From Candidatus Magasanikiibacteriota bacterium (GTDB lineage Bacteria > Patescibacteriota > Patescibacteriia > Magasanikbacterales > UBA922), in the NCBI GenBank assembly GCA_021648085.1, contig JAKITS010000001.1:132948-196947 (forward strand): a stretch of DNA of 64,000 bases. Reading direction: 5' to 3'. The notes beneath the pieces were generated by a model, which was given only the letters and a program-made list of their open reading frames with translations, was not told the origin of the DNA and searched no databases. Positions 54,689 to 61,566 of the stretch are shown piece after piece (the stretch's first letter is position 1; each line of letters opens with the position of its first letter). Made by a program: the position numbers and the translations under genes.

Positions 54689-56329
54689 TTAAATTTTCCT
54701 CACCATATAAGTACCAACTTTTCGATACCCTAATTTTCTATAATATCCTCTTACTCCAACTCCAGAAATTACAGCCATTTTTTTGTAGCCTTCTTTTTTT
54801 GCAATTTTTTCTGCTTCAACCATTAATTTTTTACCAGTTCCTTTGTGTTGTGCTGCATTTTTCTTGTATTTACCAATTCCCACAAGTTGTCCGTAAGTAT
54901 GAAGCTCTCGTACAAAAGCACAATTTTTTATTTCTGGGAGTAATTTATAAACTCCTATTTTTTTCGGAGTTTTTTCTGGAATTCTAAGTCTCAAAAATCC
55001 AAACAAAGCTTCGCGGTTTTTGGTTTCATAACTTATAAAGTATTCTTTCCCACCAACTGTTTCATACATTTCCACAAATAGGTGGGGAGGTTCATTTGCA
55101 AGTTCTTTGTGTCTGCCAATTTCGCGACAACGCAAACATACACATTTTTCACCTTTTTCTGCCATTTTTTCTTTTAGCATTTCTCGTAGATTTGTAGTGG
55201 AGTTTCCTGCTGTGATTTCTGTACTTGGAATATCGCGAATCAATCTAGAAATTCTACAATAAAGCGGAGTGGCAATTTTCATTTTTATCAAAGACTCAAA
55301 CAAATCTTTTGGATTCTGTGGTTTATATTTTTTATTTTTGTACCATTTATAAAGCTCTGTATTTTTCAAAACTGCGCAAGGATAAATCTTTACCATATCT
55401 GGTCGCAGTGCCTCGTCTACAAACAAACTCTTGTACATCTCTACATCGTGCTGCGGGCTAGATCCAGGCAAGTCTGGCATAAAGTGTAGATCTACTTTAA
55501 AACCAGCTTGTCTTAGTAAAAACATGGCTTTTTTGAATTGCTCTACTGTGTGTCCGCGCTTTGTAAGCTCCAAAATTTTATCGTCTGGTGCTTGAAGTCC
55601 AAGCTCAATTCTAGTGCAACCTTGCCTACGCATATGGAAAATTGTTTTTGGTGTAATTGTGTCTGGGCGTGTTTCCAAAGTTAACCCAATTATTCTAAAT
55701 TTTGCTTTTTCATTTTTCCTTTGTTCTTTTTCTAGTGCTTCTTGAAGTTCTTCTAAGGTTGAATCTAAACTAACCTTCTCCTTCTTAGGTTTTCCATATT
55801 CATTACACGCGCGAAAAGATTCCAAAATAAACCAATATTGATATTTTATTTGGTAAGCATTCCAAGTTCCGCCTTTAATTATAAATTCAATTTTATCTGC
55901 AATATGTCCACTTTCTGTTAAAGCTTCAATTCTTCTACGCATTTGCTCGTAAGGACTAAAGTCCAAAAGTAGAGCTCTTGCTGCTGCAGGTTCAGATGCA
56001 AGATAACTTTTTGGCATTCGCTTTTCTGTTGGGCAATATATGCATTTTCCTGGACAACTATATGGTTTTACAAGTGAGGTCACAACGGCAATTCCAGACA
56101 AACTGCGAATATCTGCTTTTCGCATAAAAAGTTCTAAATTCTTATCTTTTTTTATTTTCTTTTTTTCAACCAATTCTCTATAAACAGCAAAAAGCAACCT
56201 ATTTGAAGGTTGTTTTAGTTTCATTTTTCCTGCAATTATTCTTTTGGCATCATCTACTCCAAATTTGTGTTGCGGTTTTTTTGAAATTATAAATCTTAAT
56301 ATTTTTTCCAATTCTTTCTTTGTGTGCAT
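54689..56329 (-). CDS. elp3: Elp3-like radical SAM / GNAT acetyltransferase (tRNA U34 carboxymethyl modification homolog)
   Basis: 'CPGKCIYCP' (Cx4Cx2C radical SAM cluster) and C-terminal GNAT 'HKGTGKKLMVEAEKIAKKEGYKKMAV'. Confidence 0.8.
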   Translation of the reverse strand: MHTKKELEKILRFIISKKPQHKFGVDDAKRIIAGKMKLKQPSNRLLFAVYRELVEKKKIKKDKNLELFMRKADIRSLSGIAVVTSLVKPYSCPGKCIYCPTEKRMPKSYLASEPAAARALLLDFSPYEQMRRRIEALTESGHIADKIEFIIKGGTWNAYQIKYQYWFILESFRACNEYGKPKKEKVSLDSTLEELQEALEKEQRKNEKAKFRIIGLTLETRPDTITPKTIFHMRRQGCTRIELGLQAPDDKILELTKRGHTVEQFKKAMFLLRQAGFKVDLHFMPDLPGSSPQHDVEMYKSLFVDEALRPDMVKIYPCAVLKNTELYKWYKNKKYKPQNPKDLFESLIKMKIATPLYCRISRLIRDIPSTEITAGNSTTNLREMLKEKMAEKGEKCVCLRCREIGRHKELANEPPHLFVEMYETVGGKEYFISYETKNREALFGFLRLRIPEKTPKKIGVYKLLPEIKNCAFVRELHTYGQLVGIGKYKKNAAQHKGTGKKLMVEAEKIAKKEGYKKMAVISGVGVRGYYRKLGYRKVGTYMVRKI

Positions 56330-56511: not shown

Positions 56512-57390
56512 TCATTTTCCAGTAATCAAACAAACAATTGCCCCATTCCAACTCCAGCCAGATTCGCGAGCTTTGATAAGTCCAGCCACAGAAAGTGCGC
56601 TGTTTGGTGAAATCTCTATTTCTGTGTCTTCTACTGTTATATTTATTGCGCTTTTTATTTCATTATTTGTGACTATCCAGCCACTTCCTTTTGAGTTTTT
56701 TACAATTTCTGTAACTATATCTTTTCTGTGCGCTACATTATCCACAATTGCTCCAGCTATTGAATCCTCTACATCTATTTTATCCCATTTCATAAATTCA
56801 CTAGCAATTGGATTGCAACTTTCTGTCTGTACTATATGAATTTGTGGATTTTGTTTTAAACTCTCAAAGTGCTTTCCCAAAGCTTCTGCTGTAGTTCCAG
56901 AAGAAGTTGGTACAAAAATAGCCTCCAAATTCTCTATTTCATCTAATTCTTCTGCTAAACTCTTATATCCTTCCAAAGCAGTTTCATCTGTAGATTGTCT
57001 TAAATAAGCGATATTTTCTTTTTTTCCCTCCAAAAAAGCCTGTTGTTTTGGTCTTTCTACTTGTTTTATCTCTATATTTTCGTCTGTAAGCTTATTTAAA
57101 GGTTTTAATTTGCCTTCACTTATCTTTTTACCCACAAAAACCGCTAATTTTACAGCTTTTTGAGCTGTTTTGTTGTGTTTTTTTACAAATAGCATAGCAG
57201 TTAGTCCTGCATTTCCAGAGGAGGATACTACAAATTCAGTAATGCCTGTCTTTATATAGCTTTCAATCATTTTTGGAATAGACCTACCTTTGTGAGATTT
57301 GTACTCATGCATGTCTTCTCTTTTCAAATAAAGCATTGGTACGCCGATACTACTTGCCAAATTTGGGTATGATTTTTGTGGTGTTTGCAT
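56512..57390 (-). CDS. Fold-type II PLP-dependent enzyme (TrpB/threonine-synthase-like), specificity unknown
   Basis: 'EYKSHKGRS' lysine block and the glycine-rich 'VSSSGNAGLT' PLP-phosphate loop. Confidence 0.4.
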   Translation of the reverse strand: MQTPQKSYPNLASSIGVPMLYLKREDMHEYKSHKGRSIPKMIESYIKTGITEFVVSSSGNAGLTAMLFVKKHNKTAQKAVKLAVFVGKKISEGKLKPLNKLTDENIEIKQVERPKQQAFLEGKKENIAYLRQSTDETALEGYKSLAEELDEIENLEAIFVPTSSGTTAEALGKHFESLKQNPQIHIVQTESCNPIASEFMKWDKIDVEDSIAGAIVDNVAHRKDIVTEIVKNSKGSGWIVTNNEIKSAINITVEDTEIEISPNSALSVAGLIKARESGWSWNGAIVCLITGK

Positions 57391-57482
57391 AAATTTAAAA
57401 TAAAATTCTATATTTTAACATGTTAAATATATCAGTTTTTGGCTAAAGTATCAAGTTTTTTCGTGATTTCGTCTTAAAAGAC

Positions 57483-57516
57483 TTGACAAAACATTAAAAA
57501 TGTGCTATTATATTTA
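57483..57516 (+). promoter_or_regulatory. Near-consensus sigma-70 promoter driving the GC-rich RNA
   Basis: TTGACA (57483-88), 17-nt spacer, TGcTATTAT extended -10 (57503-11). Confidence 0.6.
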
Positions 57517-57519
57517 AAT

Positions 57520-57855
57520 AATATGAAAGTATTATTAAAGTTCTTTGTACAGCGGTGTGTAGTCGCAGATCCATTTGCATTAACGCAATTGGTTGGGTAC
57601 GAAGAATGTGTCCTATTTATATTATATAGTGACACCGAAGAATCGGGAAGTGAATCCTCTTGGGTTCCAAGAGTTTCTGAGTATCGTTTGATGGTACTTA
57701 GGAAAATCCCGAACAACCCTGTAGAAGGGTTAGAGAACGGGTCTGATCAGCCCTCTCACTGCACAATCGACTTTTGGTTAGTGGGGTTTCCACATCGTTT
57801 TTCCAAAGCGAGCCAATTGTCACCACCCCCAGACTTTGTCTGGGGGTTTTTTTAT
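57520..57855 (+). ncRNA. Unclassified structured RNA (~330 nt), promoter to intrinsic terminator
   Basis: GC content is about 45% against a ~30% background. The 5' end is set by the consensus promoter and the 3' end by hairpin 'CCCCCAGACTTTGTCTGGGGG' plus T7. The 118-aa ORF here has no RBS and starts inside the promoter. The downstream gene has its own promoter, so this is probably a stand-alone RNA rather than a leader. Confidence 0.5.
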
Positions 57856-57890
57856 TGACAAAAATCATTTTTTTGTGTAAAGTCTAATAA
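57855..57890 (+). promoter_or_regulatory. Promoter of the small membrane protein gene
   Basis: TTGACA, 17-nt spacer, TGTGTAAAGT (extended -10), then RBS GGAGG 8 nt before the ATG at 57903. Confidence 0.45.
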
Positions 57891-57902
57891 GAACCTTTCA
57901 TT

Positions 57903-58211
57903 TTGTTGGAGGTAAAAATGAAAAAGGTAGGAGTTTTCAAAAGTTTAAGTTCTTTATTAAAAGTAAAAAGTTTTCTGAATTTTTTTGCGATTTATGTTCA
58001 TTTTGCAAAAAGTATAAAAGACTCTGGTAAAAAGAAGGTATTTTTGATTGTTTATTTTGGATTGGCTATTCCAACTATTGGATATTATTACGCTTTCGCA
58101 AAAATTTTTAGTTTAACAGTTTTTATTTTTGTGTGGTTTTTTCTTTTCCCGCTTTTCTATTATTGGCTTGGGCAGGGGAATGTGCCAAAGAAGGTAAAAA
58201 CCAAAAAATAG
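57903..58211 (+). CDS. Small membrane protein (102 aa)
   Basis: Strong RBS 'TTGGAGGTAAAAATG', two to three TM helices, own terminator at 58217-58246. Confidence 0.5.
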   Translation: MLEVKMKKVGVFKSLSSLLKVKSFLNFFAIYVHFAKSIKDSGKKKVFLIVYFGLAIPTIGYYYAFAKIFSLTVFIFVWFFLFPLFYYWLGQGNVPKKVKTKK

Positions 58212-58216
58212 TTCAC

Positions 58217-58246
58217 AAGACCGATTCATTTCGGTCTTTTTGTTTG
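58217..58246 (+). terminator. Intrinsic terminator
   Basis: 'AAGACCGATTCATTTCGGTCTTTTTGTTT'. Confidence 0.6.
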
Positions 58247-58604
58247 AAAATTACCGTTAACAATGTTAAACTTTTAATAGTAATGTAAAGTTTTTCTCTG
58301 TCATTTCGAACTAAAGTCAGAAATCCCTTAAACGTGATATATAAGTAAAACTTTTTTTTAAATTCAAAACCCAATCCTTCTCACTTTACCTTTTGAGACC
58401 AAAAGGTAACCAAAAGTGCCGAACGGTTGATAATTTTAGGCTTAATTTATTTTTAAAACTTATTTAATTAACCGCATTCGCTATTTTAATTATCCTTTTG
58501 TATTCTCAAAAGGACCATAAGTTTTAAAAAGAAATTAGTTCAAAAATTTCAAATGTTCGGGAGGTTGGAATTTAGGACGAAAAATAATTTATTAATAAAA
58601 AAAT

Positions 58605-58769
58605 ATGCATTTAGTTTGCCCAGAATGTAAAAATGATGTGGATTTGGAAGCTCATCCAAAAGTGAAAGTTGGACAAGTTGTAGAATGTGATAAATGTGGA
58701 ATTACTCTTTCTGTTCTAGGAATAGACGGAGACGAGATAAACGCAGAAGTTGTGGATGAAGGAAAATAA
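58605..58769 (+). CDS. LysW/ArgW-like zinc-ribbon small protein (54 aa), not in the ORF track
   Basis: 'MHLVCPECKNDVDLEAHPKVKVGQVVECDKCGITLSVLGIDGDEINAEVVDEGK' fits the LysW pattern (CPEC...ECxxCGxxLxV..xD, acidic C-terminus). The terminal EDWGE is replaced by DEGK. Confidence 0.35.
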   Translation: MHLVCPECKNDVDLEAHPKVKVGQVVECDKCGITLSVLGIDGDEINAEVVDEGK

Positions 58770-58822
58770 TTGCGATAATAGACTAAGTAAAAAAGTTGTT
58801 TTATTTAATTAAAATAAAAAAT

Positions 58823-59398
58823 ATGAAATTTAAAGTAGTATTAATAGGTGTGGTATTAGTAGGTGTTCTTGTAATTTCTGGTTGTAGTTTGTTTGAGGAA
58901 AGGGATACAAAATTGGAAAACTCGTTAAACAATCAAGCAAATTTAGAAATAAATAACGTGCAGTTTGCAAATGTACCTGAGGTAGGCAAAGACATAGAGG
59001 ATGAAAGAGGTTTGCATTCTCAGGTTATTCGCGACATAGATGGAATAAAGTATTCCAATAATATCTATCGTTTTTCTTTTATTGTGCCTAATAAATGGGG
59101 TAATGTAAAAGATGTGGTTTCAGAAGGTATGACTGGAACAAAGTTTGTGGAAAGTATTAGGATAATTGATGTGAATAATACTGAAAAGTTTATTGATATA
59201 TATGTTGTAAAAACTGAAGATAAAAACCATGCTACTATCACAGATGCGCCAATTACGTATTTAGCAGGCGACTCAACTTACAGTTTTTATTGGTCAGGAA
59301 GTGCCGATGGTGCAGGAATGCCTGGGCTTGAGGATCAAAAGTATATGGATATATTAGTAGAATTAAATAAAGTAAAAAATACTTTTAAACTTTGGTAA
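58823..59398 (+). CDS. Lipoprotein (signal peptide plus lipobox)
   Basis: 'MKFKVVLIGVVLVGVLVISGCSLF' with lipobox ISGC. The track uses an upstream TTG start at 58796. Confidence 0.55.
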   Translation: MKFKVVLIGVVLVGVLVISGCSLFEERDTKLENSLNNQANLEINNVQFANVPEVGKDIEDERGLHSQVIRDIDGIKYSNNIYRFSFIVPNKWGNVKDVVSEGMTGTKFVESIRIIDVNNTEKFIDIYVVKTEDKNHATITDAPITYLAGDSTYSFYWSGSADGAGMPGLEDQKYMDILVELNKVKNTFKLW

Positions 59399-59410
59399 AA
59401 GAATAAAAAT

Positions 59411-59446
59411 AAAAAAGACGCTGAAATGAATTAGCGTCTTTTTTAA
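59411..59446. terminator. Bidirectional intrinsic terminator
   Basis: 'AAAAAAGACGCTGAAATGAATTAGCGTCTTTTTT'. Confidence 0.7.
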
Positions 59447-59469
59447 TCTTTAAATTTGTGAATTGTTCA

Positions 59470-59511
59470 CGAGATCCATTCGACTCCACTTCATTCCACT
59501 CAGGACGATGT
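59470..59511. repeat. Family A repeat unit overlapping the 3' end of the Mur-ligase gene
   Basis: 'CGAGATCCATTCGACTCCACTTCATTCCACTCAGGACGATGT'. Its terminal 'TCAGGACGATGT' is the reverse complement of the gene's last codons ACA TCG TCC TGA (T S S stop). Confidence 0.7.
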
Positions 59512-61566
59512 AAGTTTGTCTACCAAATTTTTAATCATTCCGCGGAAGCCGTGGGAACCTAGGAAAACTATAACATTTCCAGCTTCACTATTTTTTTCTA
59601 AATATTCTAGAAGTTCAGCGTCTTGCTCTAAATATAAAACATTGTTGTGAGTTTTCTTTATAATTTCTGCCAATTCTTTTCCGTCTGCAGGTTTACTTTC
59701 TTCGCTGGCAGATTTTACTTTTGTAAGTCTTGGGATGATTACAGTATCCGCATTTTCAAAAGCATTGTCATAAAAAGGAAAAGACTGACTTTTTCTATTT
59801 CCTGTATTTGGTTCGTAAATTGCAATAACTTTTTCAGAATAAAGCTTTTTGAGTGTGGATAATACAGAAATTGCTTTTGTAGGTGAGTGGGAGATATCGT
59901 CGTAAATATCTATTTCTCCACTAAATCTTTTTTCTAATCTTCTTTTTATTCCACGGAAACTTCCCAGTGCGTTTATTATTTTTTCTGGTTCAATTCCAGT
60001 TTGGTGCGCCATAGCAAAACATCCGCAGATATTTTCTGCCATATATTCTCCAATAATTGGCAGTATTATTTTGTAAATTTCTCTATTGTGGATAATATCA
60101 AAACTTAAACCTTCTTTTGTTTGAACTATGTTTTTATAGCTATAATCGTTTTCTACAGATTCACCATATTTTATCAATTTTCCACTGTATTCTTCTAAAA
60201 CTTCGGCAATATTTTTTCCATCTGTACAAGCCACAAGAAGCCCATTTTCTGGAATCATTTTTACTAAATTTTTGAAAGCATTTTTGTAATCTTTTTCTGT
60301 TGGGTAAATATCTGCATGATCCCAAGCTGAGGCTGTCAAAAGTACATGAGTGGGGGAATAAAGACTAAATTTTGGCTTTATATCCCAGCGAGCAGTTTTA
60401 TATTCATCACCTTCCAAAATACTCCATTTTCCGTCTGTAATTTCTGCACTTTCCTTCATATTTGCAGAAAGCCCACCAAACATATAGCTTGGGTTCATTT
60501 CTGAATTTTTGAAAATCCAAGTCAAAAGTGTTGTGTTTGAAGTTTTTCCATAAGTTCCTGCGCAAACAAGTGAATTTTCTTTCAAAAAATATTTTGCAAT
60601 TACTTCTGGATAAGACATATATGGAATTTTATTTTCCAAAACAAACTTCCATTCTGCATTTGTAGAACTTGCTACATTTCCCACAACTACCAAATCTGGA
60701 TTTCCATTTGCTGCCATTTTTTCTGGATGCCAGCCTGGGTAAAATGTCACCTGCTTTTCTTTTAAGTGTGTAGAAATTGGTGGAAAAAATCCAGCATCAC
60801 TTCCTGTGACAGCCCAACCTTTTTTCTTGAATGCAATTGCCAGAGCGCTCATGGCAACTCCACAAATTCCTATGAAATGTATGTGTTTTGGTTTTTTTAC
60901 TAATATCTCTTTCAATTTTTCTAAATCATCACTCCAATTTTCTCCATCAAACCATTCCAAACCTTTAAATTGTAATTTGTAAATATCGGTTGGTCTTTGT
61001 GCTGAGCCCAAATAAATATATTTTGCACCAATAGTTTTGGCGTATTCAATAGCTTTTAGCATCATCCCCATTCCTGTATTTTTGTTGTCTGTATTCAAAT
61101 TGTAAAAAGGATAAGAATAGTGAAATATTTCTGAATTTTCATAAGCTATACAATATCCAACAGGTTCGTTGTTTGTGGTGTATTTAAAAACTTTATTGAA
61201 ATTGCTTTTTTCTGGATTTGTAAAAATTTCTTTGATTTTGTTTGCGCTAAAAACCCCTTCACCAAACTTAGTTTCGTAAAAATCTTTACCCATTTTGTGA
61301 ATATTCCAATGATAATTTTCAAGTGGTAAATTTTTAAGCTCAAGATGTATTTCTTCTGTTTTTCTGAGTATTCTACGATTTTCGCTAGACAATTCAAATT
61401 TACTTAAATCAATACGAACACTACGAGTTTTGTTCATCAATCCTTTTTCTACGCGTGTAAAAACATAACCTTGGTTGTACAAAGAGTTTATGTTTTCTTC
61501 GCTAAAATCATTTATATTTTTTTCGTCCCAAGACAGGTATTTCATAATTAAAACAGCGCTATCCAA
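59500..61566 (-). CDS. Mur ligase (MurC/Mpl-type UDP-N-acetylmuramate:amino acid/peptide ligase) with a ~230-aa N-terminal extension
   Basis: The C-terminal 460 aa have 'HIHFIGICGVAMSALAIAFKKKGWAVTGSD' (MurC/Mpl N-domain), 'VCAGTYGKTSNTT' P-loop and 'GSHGFRG'. The N-terminal 230 aa ('NSLYNQGYVFTRVEKG...SSENRRILRK...MGMMLKAIEYAKTIGAKYIYLG') form a separate domain. Confidence 0.7.
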   Translation of the reverse strand: MDSAVLIMKYLSWDEKNINDFSEENINSLYNQGYVFTRVEKGLMNKTRSVRIDLSKFELSSENRRILRKTEEIHLELKNLPLENYHWNIHKMGKDFYETKFGEGVFSANKIKEIFTNPEKSNFNKVFKYTTNNEPVGYCIAYENSEIFHYSYPFYNLNTDNKNTGMGMMLKAIEYAKTIGAKYIYLGSAQRPTDIYKLQFKGLEWFDGENWSDDLEKLKEILVKKPKHIHFIGICGVAMSALAIAFKKKGWAVTGSDAGFFPPISTHLKEKQVTFYPGWHPEKMAANGNPDLVVVGNVASSTNAEWKFVLENKIPYMSYPEVIAKYFLKENSLVCAGTYGKTSNTTLLTWIFKNSEMNPSYMFGGLSANMKESAEITDGKWSILEGDEYKTARWDIKPKFSLYSPTHVLLTASAWDHADIYPTEKDYKNAFKNLVKMIPENGLLVACTDGKNIAEVLEEYSGKLIKYGESVENDYSYKNIVQTKEGLSFDIIHNREIYKIILPIIGEYMAENICGCFAMAHQTGIEPEKIINALGSFRGIKRRLEKRFSGEIDIYDDISHSPTKAISVLSTLKKLYSEKVIAIYEPNTGNRKSQSFPFYDNAFENADTVIIPRLTKVKSASEESKPADGKELAEIIKKTHNNVLYLEQDAELLEYLEKNSEAGNVIVFLGSHGFRGMIKNLVDKLTSS

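Follow-up and report, generated by a model that had tools for sequence, protein, structure and literature searches.

A candidate structured non-coding RNA gene outside the described families in Candidatus Magasanikbacteria

Introduction

Structured bacterial RNAs such as raiA, OLE, ROOL, GOLLD and HEARO have repeatedly led to new biology. Contacts between individual copies of ROOL, GOLLD and OLE include kissing loops. These three RNAs are reported to form homo-oligomeric complexes (PMC12286853). The raiA motif RNA is a stand-alone, trans-acting and abundant RNA of 200-250 nucleotides (nt) with its own promoter and terminator, and it combines a compact, pseudoknotted core with freely varying peripheral stems (PMC12968392). 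Here, we analyse a locus at positions 57483-57855 of a 64,000-nt stretch of DNA (the window) from a Candidatus Magasanikiibacteriota bacterium (GenBank assembly GCA_021648085.1, contig JAKITS010000001.1, positions 132,948 to 196,947 of the forward strand). An initial annotation of the window had proposed a stand-alone structured RNA of no assigned class at this position, and the proposal withstood both the comparison with Rfam and the test for coding-type conservation. The locus is probably a new stand-alone structured non-coding RNA (ncRNA) gene, of a family outside Rfam, in Candidatus Magasanikbacteria, a lineage of the Patescibacteria or Candidate Phyla Radiation (CPR). To our knowledge, almost nothing is known about the ncRNAs of CPR bacteria.

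Results

Gene signals and extent of the RNA

A consensus scan places a sigma-70 promoter directly upstream of the predicted RNA, with TTGACA at 57483-57488, a 17-nt spacer and a TG-extended TATTAT at 57503-57511. Its score (11/12) is the highest of any promoter match within 56.5-58.5 kb, and no further copy of 57483-57511 occurs elsewhere in the 64-kb window. We infer a transcription start near 57518. At the other end, a terminator stem (ACCCCCAGAC-TTT-GTCTGGGGGT, 57825-57847) is followed by T7. An RNA of about 338 nt would thus be transcribed independently, from its own promoter to its own terminator near 57853.

The RNA gene adjoins, and is divergently transcribed from, the gene for PALP, a pyridoxal phosphate (PLP)-dependent enzyme (56512-57390, minus strand). 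The next-nearest relatives of this enzyme are 80% identical and belong to a single sister species (L001 and L009-L013), and beyond these identity is at most 62%. The submitter of L001 named it 'uncultured Gammaproteobacteria', yet the relatives of its PALP are Magasanikbacteria. In L001, L010, L012 and L013, the RNA gene occupies the corresponding site, flanked by PALP and a LysW-like gene. The sister RNA has a promoter of the same type as that in the window (TTGACA-17-TATACT, with TG) and ends in its own long G+C terminator hairpin followed by U7. The block upstream of the promoter, which is present in two full copies in the sister species, also serves PALP, whose minus-strand promoter reads TTGATA-17-TATATT with the -35 element at 57454-57449. 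The signals of the window gene are as follows.

57440-57482, plus strand: upstream block, also serving the promoter of the divergent PALP gene; 85% identity to the sister
57483-57511, plus strand: sigma-70 promoter TTGACA-17-TG-TATTAT, found by consensus scan; the same type precedes the sister RNA
57825-57853, plus strand: intrinsic terminator and U-run, with a 10-bp stem of which 7 pairs are G-C; the sister has its own

The segment also stands out by composition and by predicted stability. G+C content is 44% over 57538-57855, as compared to a window mean of 31.2%, and 57547-57846 (46.3% G+C) is the top 300-nt stretch of all 64 kb (99.99th percentile). The minimum free energy (MFE) of the plus strand is -116.4 kcal/mol vs. 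-86.4 +/- 5.3 kcal/mol for dinucleotide shuffles (z = -5.6), and none of 100 shuffles equalled it. Relative to its shuffles, the minus strand is less stable (z = -4.6). The fold of the sister RNA has z = -7.9. The near-perfect promoter, the strong terminator with T7 and the GC-rich segment (about 45% against about 30%) described in the initial annotation are thus all borne out.

Two further features of the promoter region were observed. The spacer (57489-57502) holds an inverted repeat, ACATT-AAA-AATGT, which reads AACAT-N7-ATGTT in the second sister copy and is kept in all three promoter copies (window; L001 3631-3652 and 3336-3357); it could be an operator. In L013, a tandem duplication of about 25 nt (gaaatatgttatatttgttttag, twice) covers the -10/start region of the RNA promoter (2040-2090).

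A multi-helix fold retained in the sister species

The RNAs of the two species are not linked by nhmmer with single sequences, and what they share in sequence is limited to short blocks: AAGUUCUUUrUAC, AGGAAAA, CGAACA, UAGAG, GGUCUGAUCArCC and CUCACUGCACA. Two covariance models, R1 for the 5´ domain and R2 for the 3´ domain, were built solely from the sister sequence and its predicted fold and searched against both strands of the whole window (128 kb) with filters off. Each gave one significant match, R1 at 57538-57636 (32.2 bits, E = 2.5e-4; next E = 0.82) and R2 at 57676-57765 (32.2 bits, E = 6e-5; next E = 1.7), and the two matches are collinear on the plus strand. In the 5´ domain, 97% of the cells of 34 modelled pairs are paired and 10 pairs are changed on both sides; the corresponding figures for the 3´ domain are 100%, 18 modelled pairs and 4 changed pairs, such that 14 of 52 modelled pairs differ on both sides. 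When the 3´ partners were slid by 1-3 columns as a control, pairing dropped to 29-55% and both-sided changes to 0-3. Several of the pairs are G-U, which assigns the fold to the plus strand only. Helices have been kept through both-sided changes while the sequence drifted beyond the reach of nhmmer, a pattern that indicates selection on the fold. The comparison thus argues for a conserved multi-helix secondary structure, with a core of approximately 220 nt (about 57538-57765) common to the window and one sister species.

The anatomy of the RNA, as derived from the MFE fold and the covariance-model alignment with this one sister species, is predicted to be the following.

57518-57535, plus strand: leader hairpin AUAAUAU-GAAA-GUAUUAU, from the MFE fold; species-specific, not alignable with the sister
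57541-57606, plus strand: whole 5´ three-way junction (H1/Ha/Hb), from the R1 match at 57538-57636
57541-57550 with 57597-57606, plus strand: H1, which closes the three-way junction (model R1)
57552-57566, plus strand: Ha, within H1, loop UGUGUAG (model R1)
57571-57592, plus strand: Hb, within H1, loop AUUAAC (model R1)
57608-57635, plus strand: hairpin Hc; stem position kept, sequence wholly replaced
57636-57673, plus strand: variable middle, with hairpin CUCUUGGGUUCCAAGAG at 57657-57673; other hairpins in the sister
57674-57705, plus strand: long hairpin Hd2, loop GUUUGAU (R2 alignment)
57700-57715, plus strand: mostly single-stranded AGGAAAA...CGAACA, including a string that resembles helix P4 of RNase P RNA (R2 alignment)
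57715-57731, plus strand: hairpin He, AACCC-UGUAGAA-GGGUU (R2 alignment)
57733-57757, plus strand: two-tier hairpin Hf, outer GAGA/UCUC, inner GGGU/GCCC (R2 alignment)
57755-57765, plus strand: invariant tail CUCACUGCACA, called on the alignment of both species
57766-57824, plus strand: 3´ extension with two small hairpins; species-specific, only 6 nt in the sister

H1, Ha and Hb are 94-100% paired with both sides changed in 6 pairs, and Hc, with 96% of cells paired, has both sides changed in 4 of 9 pairs. Hd2 is fully paired, with one both-sided and two one-sided changes; its loop in the sister, GUUCGAAA, is T-loop-like (UUYGA). Both sides are changed in 2 of the 4 pairs of He (AGUC/GACU in the sister). 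Hf is likewise 100% paired and includes an A-U to U-A change, and its 7-nt loop CUGAUCA (57743-57749), the same in both species, contains the palindrome UGAUCA. The single-stranded elements AGGAAAA and CGAACA are identical in both species, unlike the intervening UCC. Among the internal pairings proposed in the initial annotation, the GGGTCTGATCAGCCC hairpin is conserved. Two others were not borne out by the comparison: TCTTGGGTTCCAAGAG does form a hairpin, but in the middle part that the sister does not share, and the pairing of GGAAAATCCC with GGGGTTTCC uses the 3´ extension, which is absent from the sister.

Coding potential

One reading frame is open across the whole transcript, which is unusual in AT-rich DNA, and a protein-coding gene of 118 codons (57502-57858), or of 111 from an ATG at 57523, was considered. 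The longer open reading frame (ORF) begins inside the promoter, has no ribosome-binding site and reads through the terminator, in agreement with the earlier view that no credible coding frame covers the segment; the ATG at 57523 is 5 nt past the inferred transcription start. The 118-amino acid (aa) translation has no Pfam match, and a word-indexed search of 5.8 billion proteins, meant also to pick up homologous RNAs annotated as genes by mistake, returned no relatives. Exhaustive HMMER searching of 1.84 billion representatives gave two matches, both to tandem-repeat pseudo-proteins. The score of the first is a sum over 16 identical repeats (28 bits each, 30% identity), the second shares a 13-residue word, and both were judged to be artefacts. 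The sister does not keep the frame open, and no ORF in its RNA is longer than 36 aa. Coding-type third-position conservation, which had been named as evidence that would speak against an RNA gene, was looked for in the sister alignment and not seen: mismatches per codon position in the aligned blocks are 25/57, 20/61 and 17/60, with no excess at the third position, and 11 of the 12 indels have lengths that are not divisible by three. Because the ORF has no genuine relatives, its frame is broken in the sister, mismatches are evenly spread over the codon positions and indels fall out of frame, the sequence indicates that 57483-57855 is non-coding, and a protein-coding gene is barely credible here.

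Comparison with known RNA families

At gathering thresholds, Rfam 15 (4227 families) identified only two tRNAs, at 27.7 kb, in the whole window. A permissive search of 57350-57950 (E <= 10, lax filters) gave low-scoring matches only, with no RNase P RNA, transfer-messenger RNA (tmRNA), signal recognition particle (SRP) RNA, 6S RNA, raiA, T-box or riboswitch among them; the best of these matches (rimP leader, Hrs12, anti-hemB, NsiR1) align to the terminator hairpin. The sister RNA gave terminator-shaped or low-complexity noise and no family. ARAGORN found no tmRNA and only the two tRNAs in the window. The view that the RNA has no assignable known class therefore stands, after a check in both species at both levels of stringency, and the RNA appears to belong to a family that is absent from Rfam. 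Among the features of the generic class 'stand-alone structured bacterial ncRNA gene', gene signals, non-coding sequence and compensatory changes were found, at a depth of two species.

A length of 300-340 nt, a strong promoter and a high G+C content are reminiscent of stable RNAs, and a highly divergent housekeeping RNA (RNase P, tmRNA, large SRP or 6S-like) could have been missed by standard models in CPR. The string AGGAAAAUCC (57700-57709) resembles the 5´ strand of P4 in RNase P RNA, a likeness that the initial annotation had treated with caution. This caution was justified, because the string reads AGGAAAAAUAUAC in the sister and the resemblance is best ascribed to chance. Moreover, the P4 helix formed by conserved regions CR-I (AGGAAAGUCC) and CR-V (ACAGAA..GGCUUA) was not found, as no CR-V-like strand lies downstream, and neither the window nor the sister RNA matches RNase P RNA in Rfam at gathering thresholds or at E <= 10. 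Housekeeping RNAs as a group are also disfavoured by the negative ARAGORN result, by the lack of a helix joining the 5´ and 3´ ends, of a tRNA-like end and of a conserved tag frame, by the absence of the RNA from the syntenic site in relatives, and by its location in a variable intergenic hot spot. We consider this explanation highly improbable.

Several individual classes were also tried and rejected. For tmRNA, the sister does not retain the frame that follows the conserved GCA. SRP RNA, whose domain IV hairpin (GNRA loop, symmetric and asymmetric loops) the Rfam models recognise, gave no match at E <= 10 in either species, and the 5´ three-way junction recalls the Alu domain only superficially. 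The RNA is a string of at least eight separate helices over 338 nt and not the rod of about 180-200 nt with a central bubble of 6S RNA. The raiA motif RNA was rejected on the Rfam result and on the absence of a terminal closing helix in either species. A riboswitch or T-box leader was rejected in view of the Rfam result, the differing downstream genes and the non-conserved segment before the terminator. CUGAUCA is not the CUGAUGA of the hammerhead core, the likeness to group II domain 5 is confined to Hc of the sister, and the SRP Alu domain and the lysine riboswitch (the latter prompted by the LysW neighbour) were considered and dropped. Retrons, omega-RNA and bridge RNA were set aside, as no reverse transcriptase, IscB, TnpB or IS110 gene is nearby.

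Relation to the downstream gene

The RNA gene is a GC-rich structured segment whose terminator lies immediately before another gene of the plus strand, an arrangement expected of a cis-acting leader or riboswitch in which the terminator controls read-through. The downstream gene differs between species: it encodes a 102-aa membrane protein in the window and a LysW-like protein in the sister. As stated in the initial annotation, the window gene has its own promoter and ribosome-binding site. The promoter reads TTGACA-17-TAAAGT (57855-57883) and overlaps the last part of the T-run, and the ribosome-binding site is GGAGG; upstream of the sister gene there is only a weak promoter-like match (TTGAAA-16-AAAAAT, 9/12). 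The segment between the core and the terminator is not conserved, which leaves no conserved antiterminator alternative, no riboswitch or T-box matched in Rfam, and relatives have LysW without the RNA. A leader is thus very improbable. Since the downstream gene differs between species and that of the window has its own promoter, the RNA is more plausibly trans-acting, and its sequence context speaks against a leader.

The locus and its neighbours

In the more distant Magasanikbacteria L002, L003 and L006, LysW is directly beside PALP, with 25-250 nt between them (L002 4749-5000, L003 4940-5000, L006 4976-5000). This spacer appears to be a variable hot spot, as it measures 1215 nt in the window (57391-58604), where it contains the RNA, the ORF for the 102-aa membrane protein (57903-58211), which has a promoter and a terminator of its own, and an AT-rich non-coding part of about 360 nt. 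Long palindromes, TGTCATTCCCGC...GCGGGAATGACA, occur in intergenic DNA beside LysW or the Mur ligase in other genomes (L002 4830-4990; L001 ~2640-2720) and look like miniature inverted-repeat transposable elements (MITEs) or repetitive extragenic palindromic (REP) sequences.

The sister species has a second small RNA (sRNA)-like gene, RNA-A, just upstream of the RNA homolog (L001 3435-3625, minus strand; L009 107-309; L012; L013). A duplicate of the promoter block of about 80 nt drives RNA-A, in which two 5´ hairpins are followed by (A7-8 C) repeats over 65-90 nt and then by a long terminator hairpin. The number of repeats varies among contigs, and RNA-A is missing from contig L010 and from the window, making it strain-variable. 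Its only Rfam match is weak and CrcZ-like (E = 0.002, far below the gathering score). One hairpin loop of RNA-A is GCUCCUUAG, which we take to match the 3´ end of 16S rRNA in an anti-Shine-Dalgarno-like manner.

The variability of the spacer, the MITE-like palindromes found there in other genomes and the presence or absence of the neighbouring RNA-A between strains could be taken to mean that the RNA is a decaying remnant of a mobile element or old gene, with no present function. A remnant would hardly have kept a consensus promoter and a strong terminator in both species, or helices maintained via both-sided changes despite drift of the sequence, and we regard this as improbable.

The wider gene neighbourhood is as follows. 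A cluster encoding an MraY-like glycosyltransferase, an unknown protein, a Mur ligase, a LysW-like zinc-ribbon protein and the PLP enzyme is common to Magasanikbacteria (window 58605-61566 and 56512-57390; L002, L003, L006). The cluster, to which L002 adds a RimK-type ATP-grasp protein, is reminiscent of amino-group-carrier-protein (LysW/LysX) chemistry. The Mur ligase of the window (59500-61566, minus strand) has an N-terminal arginyl-tRNA-protein-transferase-like (ATE_C) domain. An ELP3-like protein (radical SAM plus GNAT acetyltransferase; window 54689-56329, minus strand) is found beside the cluster in all related loci.

Discussion

CPR genomes are about 1 Mb in size and have little spare DNA. 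In such a small genome, an RNA gene of 340 nt with a near-consensus promoter and a fold that is kept despite sequence drift must pay its way. We favour a reading in which the RNA works in trans through its folded shape, with the invariant loops and linkers offering surfaces that would be recognised by a protein, by a different RNA or by another copy of the same RNA. The RNA would then serve as a scaffold or sequestering RNA rather than as a plain antisense regulator, and the invariant, palindromic UGAUCA loop could form a kissing dimer. We put forward this compactly folded, binding or scaffolding mechanism tentatively, as a possibility that falls short of being probable. It is favoured because conservation extends across some 90 nt of the 3´ domain, taking in stems as well as loops and linkers, and includes the 5´ junction; a candidate pseudoknot is a further reason.

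The candidate pseudoknot is a long-range pairing between the invariant tail (CUGCAC, 57759-57764) and the loop of Ha (GUGUAG, 57557-57562). The partners read GUGUAG/CUGCAC in the window and GUGCAG/CUGCAC in the sister (-5.8 and -7.8 kcal/mol, respectively), and the single C-to-U difference in the Ha loop keeps the pairing with the tail as a G-U pair. In the sister RNA, no other 6-bp Watson-Crick match links a hairpin loop with an unpaired stretch. Its candidacy is mainly due to both partners being among the best-conserved unpaired elements. The pairing would hold the two domains of the RNA together as a single compact body.

The main rival to a compactly folded binding RNA is a base-pairing sRNA, in which an invariant unpaired stretch (CUCACUGCACA, CGAACA or AGGAAAA) would be a seed that acts in trans, the invariant tail in particular, and the hairpins would provide stability. 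In its favour, regulatory sRNAs typically have stand-alone genes that end in a terminator hairpin and U-tail, the secondary-structure model leaves CUCACUGCACA, the longest of the invariant blocks, without a partner, and the distribution is narrow and strain-variable with a second sRNA-like gene adjoining in the sister. However, a multi-helix core of 220 nt with 14 both-sided changes far exceeds the needs of a seed, and the proposed seed has its complement in a conserved loop within the RNA itself. When the RNA was scanned by crude duplex energies against translation-start regions in the window and in L001, the outcome was long, meaningless duplexes. A seed-pairing sRNA is therefore unlikely, while still deserving consideration.

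Some observations weigh against a new, functional structured RNA that acts through its fold. Only two distinct species carry the RNA, and the covariation consequently lacks phylogenetic depth. The alignments were fitted to a covariance model, which favours pairing. At least one 6-bp match of the pseudoknot type arises in 9% of cases when the unpaired bases are shuffled, and the pseudoknot alone is thus not significant. The genes neighbouring the RNA give no functional hint. The RNA is absent from the PALP-LysW locus of the more distant L002, L003 and L006, and in metagenomes a 22-base pattern taken from the best-conserved block (TAGAG..TCTGATCA..TCACTGCAC) matched only two contigs, both of the sister species. 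A looser pattern gave 12 matches among viral contigs, all in unrelated contexts, and blastn against phages and plasmids returned one chance match of 52 nt (E = 0.09) and nothing more. The two-species distribution is the outcome of the walk along PALP synteny and of these metagenome, viral and phage/plasmid scans, with the distant relatives examined at this locus only. A narrow distribution, in two species of Magasanikbacteria, is credible on these searches. With two species, the RNA amounts to a well-supported candidate and not yet to a class.

A more far-reaching and rather doubtful possibility is that the RNA represents a new class of compact, pseudoknot-closed ncRNA of the CPR/Patescibacteria that is more widespread and fast-evolving, and that operates as an RNA machine or assembly rather than in conventional regulation. 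It might take the form of a ribonucleoprotein core, of a decoy resembling a tRNA elbow or anticodon arm, or of a homodimer formed via the UGAUCA loop. If homologs are found across Patescibacteria, they would make up a new class of medium-sized structured RNA beside raiA, OLE, ROOL, GOLLD and HEARO.

Comparison with described RNAs places the candidate at varying distances from several of them. It resembles RNase P RNA in being a GC-rich, presumably stable and strongly expressed RNA of similar size with a candidate long-range helix and a P4-like string, but it has no covariance-model match and lacks a CR-V partner, P1 and the motifs of the specificity domain. The proposed action, by which a folded or repetitive RNA titrates a protein, recalls 6S, CsrB/RsmZ and CrcZ, and the sister carries the A-rich repeat RNA-A, weakly CrcZ-like, beside the homolog and under the same promoter. 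The RNA itself, in contrast, has no rod with a bubble, no repeated loop GGA or CA motifs and no Rfam match to these families. OLE, ROOL and GOLLD are similar in being GC-rich, highly structured ncRNA genes that run from promoter to terminator in intergenic DNA, and the UGAUCA loop would allow a kissing-type contact in the Magasanikbacteria RNA also, self-association being offered here as a hypothesis only. These RNAs are 580-800+ nt long, widespread and known from hundreds of sequences, whereas the RNA described here has 338 nt, a core of about 220 nt and no match in Rfam. The raiA motif RNA is closest in life-style, as an independent gene with a conserved core, a variable periphery and a function that is not known. 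It is closed by a P1 helix joining the 5´ and 3´ ends and has two pseudoknots, as opposed to no closing helix and one candidate pseudoknot in the Magasanikbacteria RNA, and it is found in more than 2700 species of Firmicutes and Actinobacteria as compared to two species. In conclusion, the RNA appears from its sequence and predicted fold to be a member of no described family, and to represent a new family of a known general kind.

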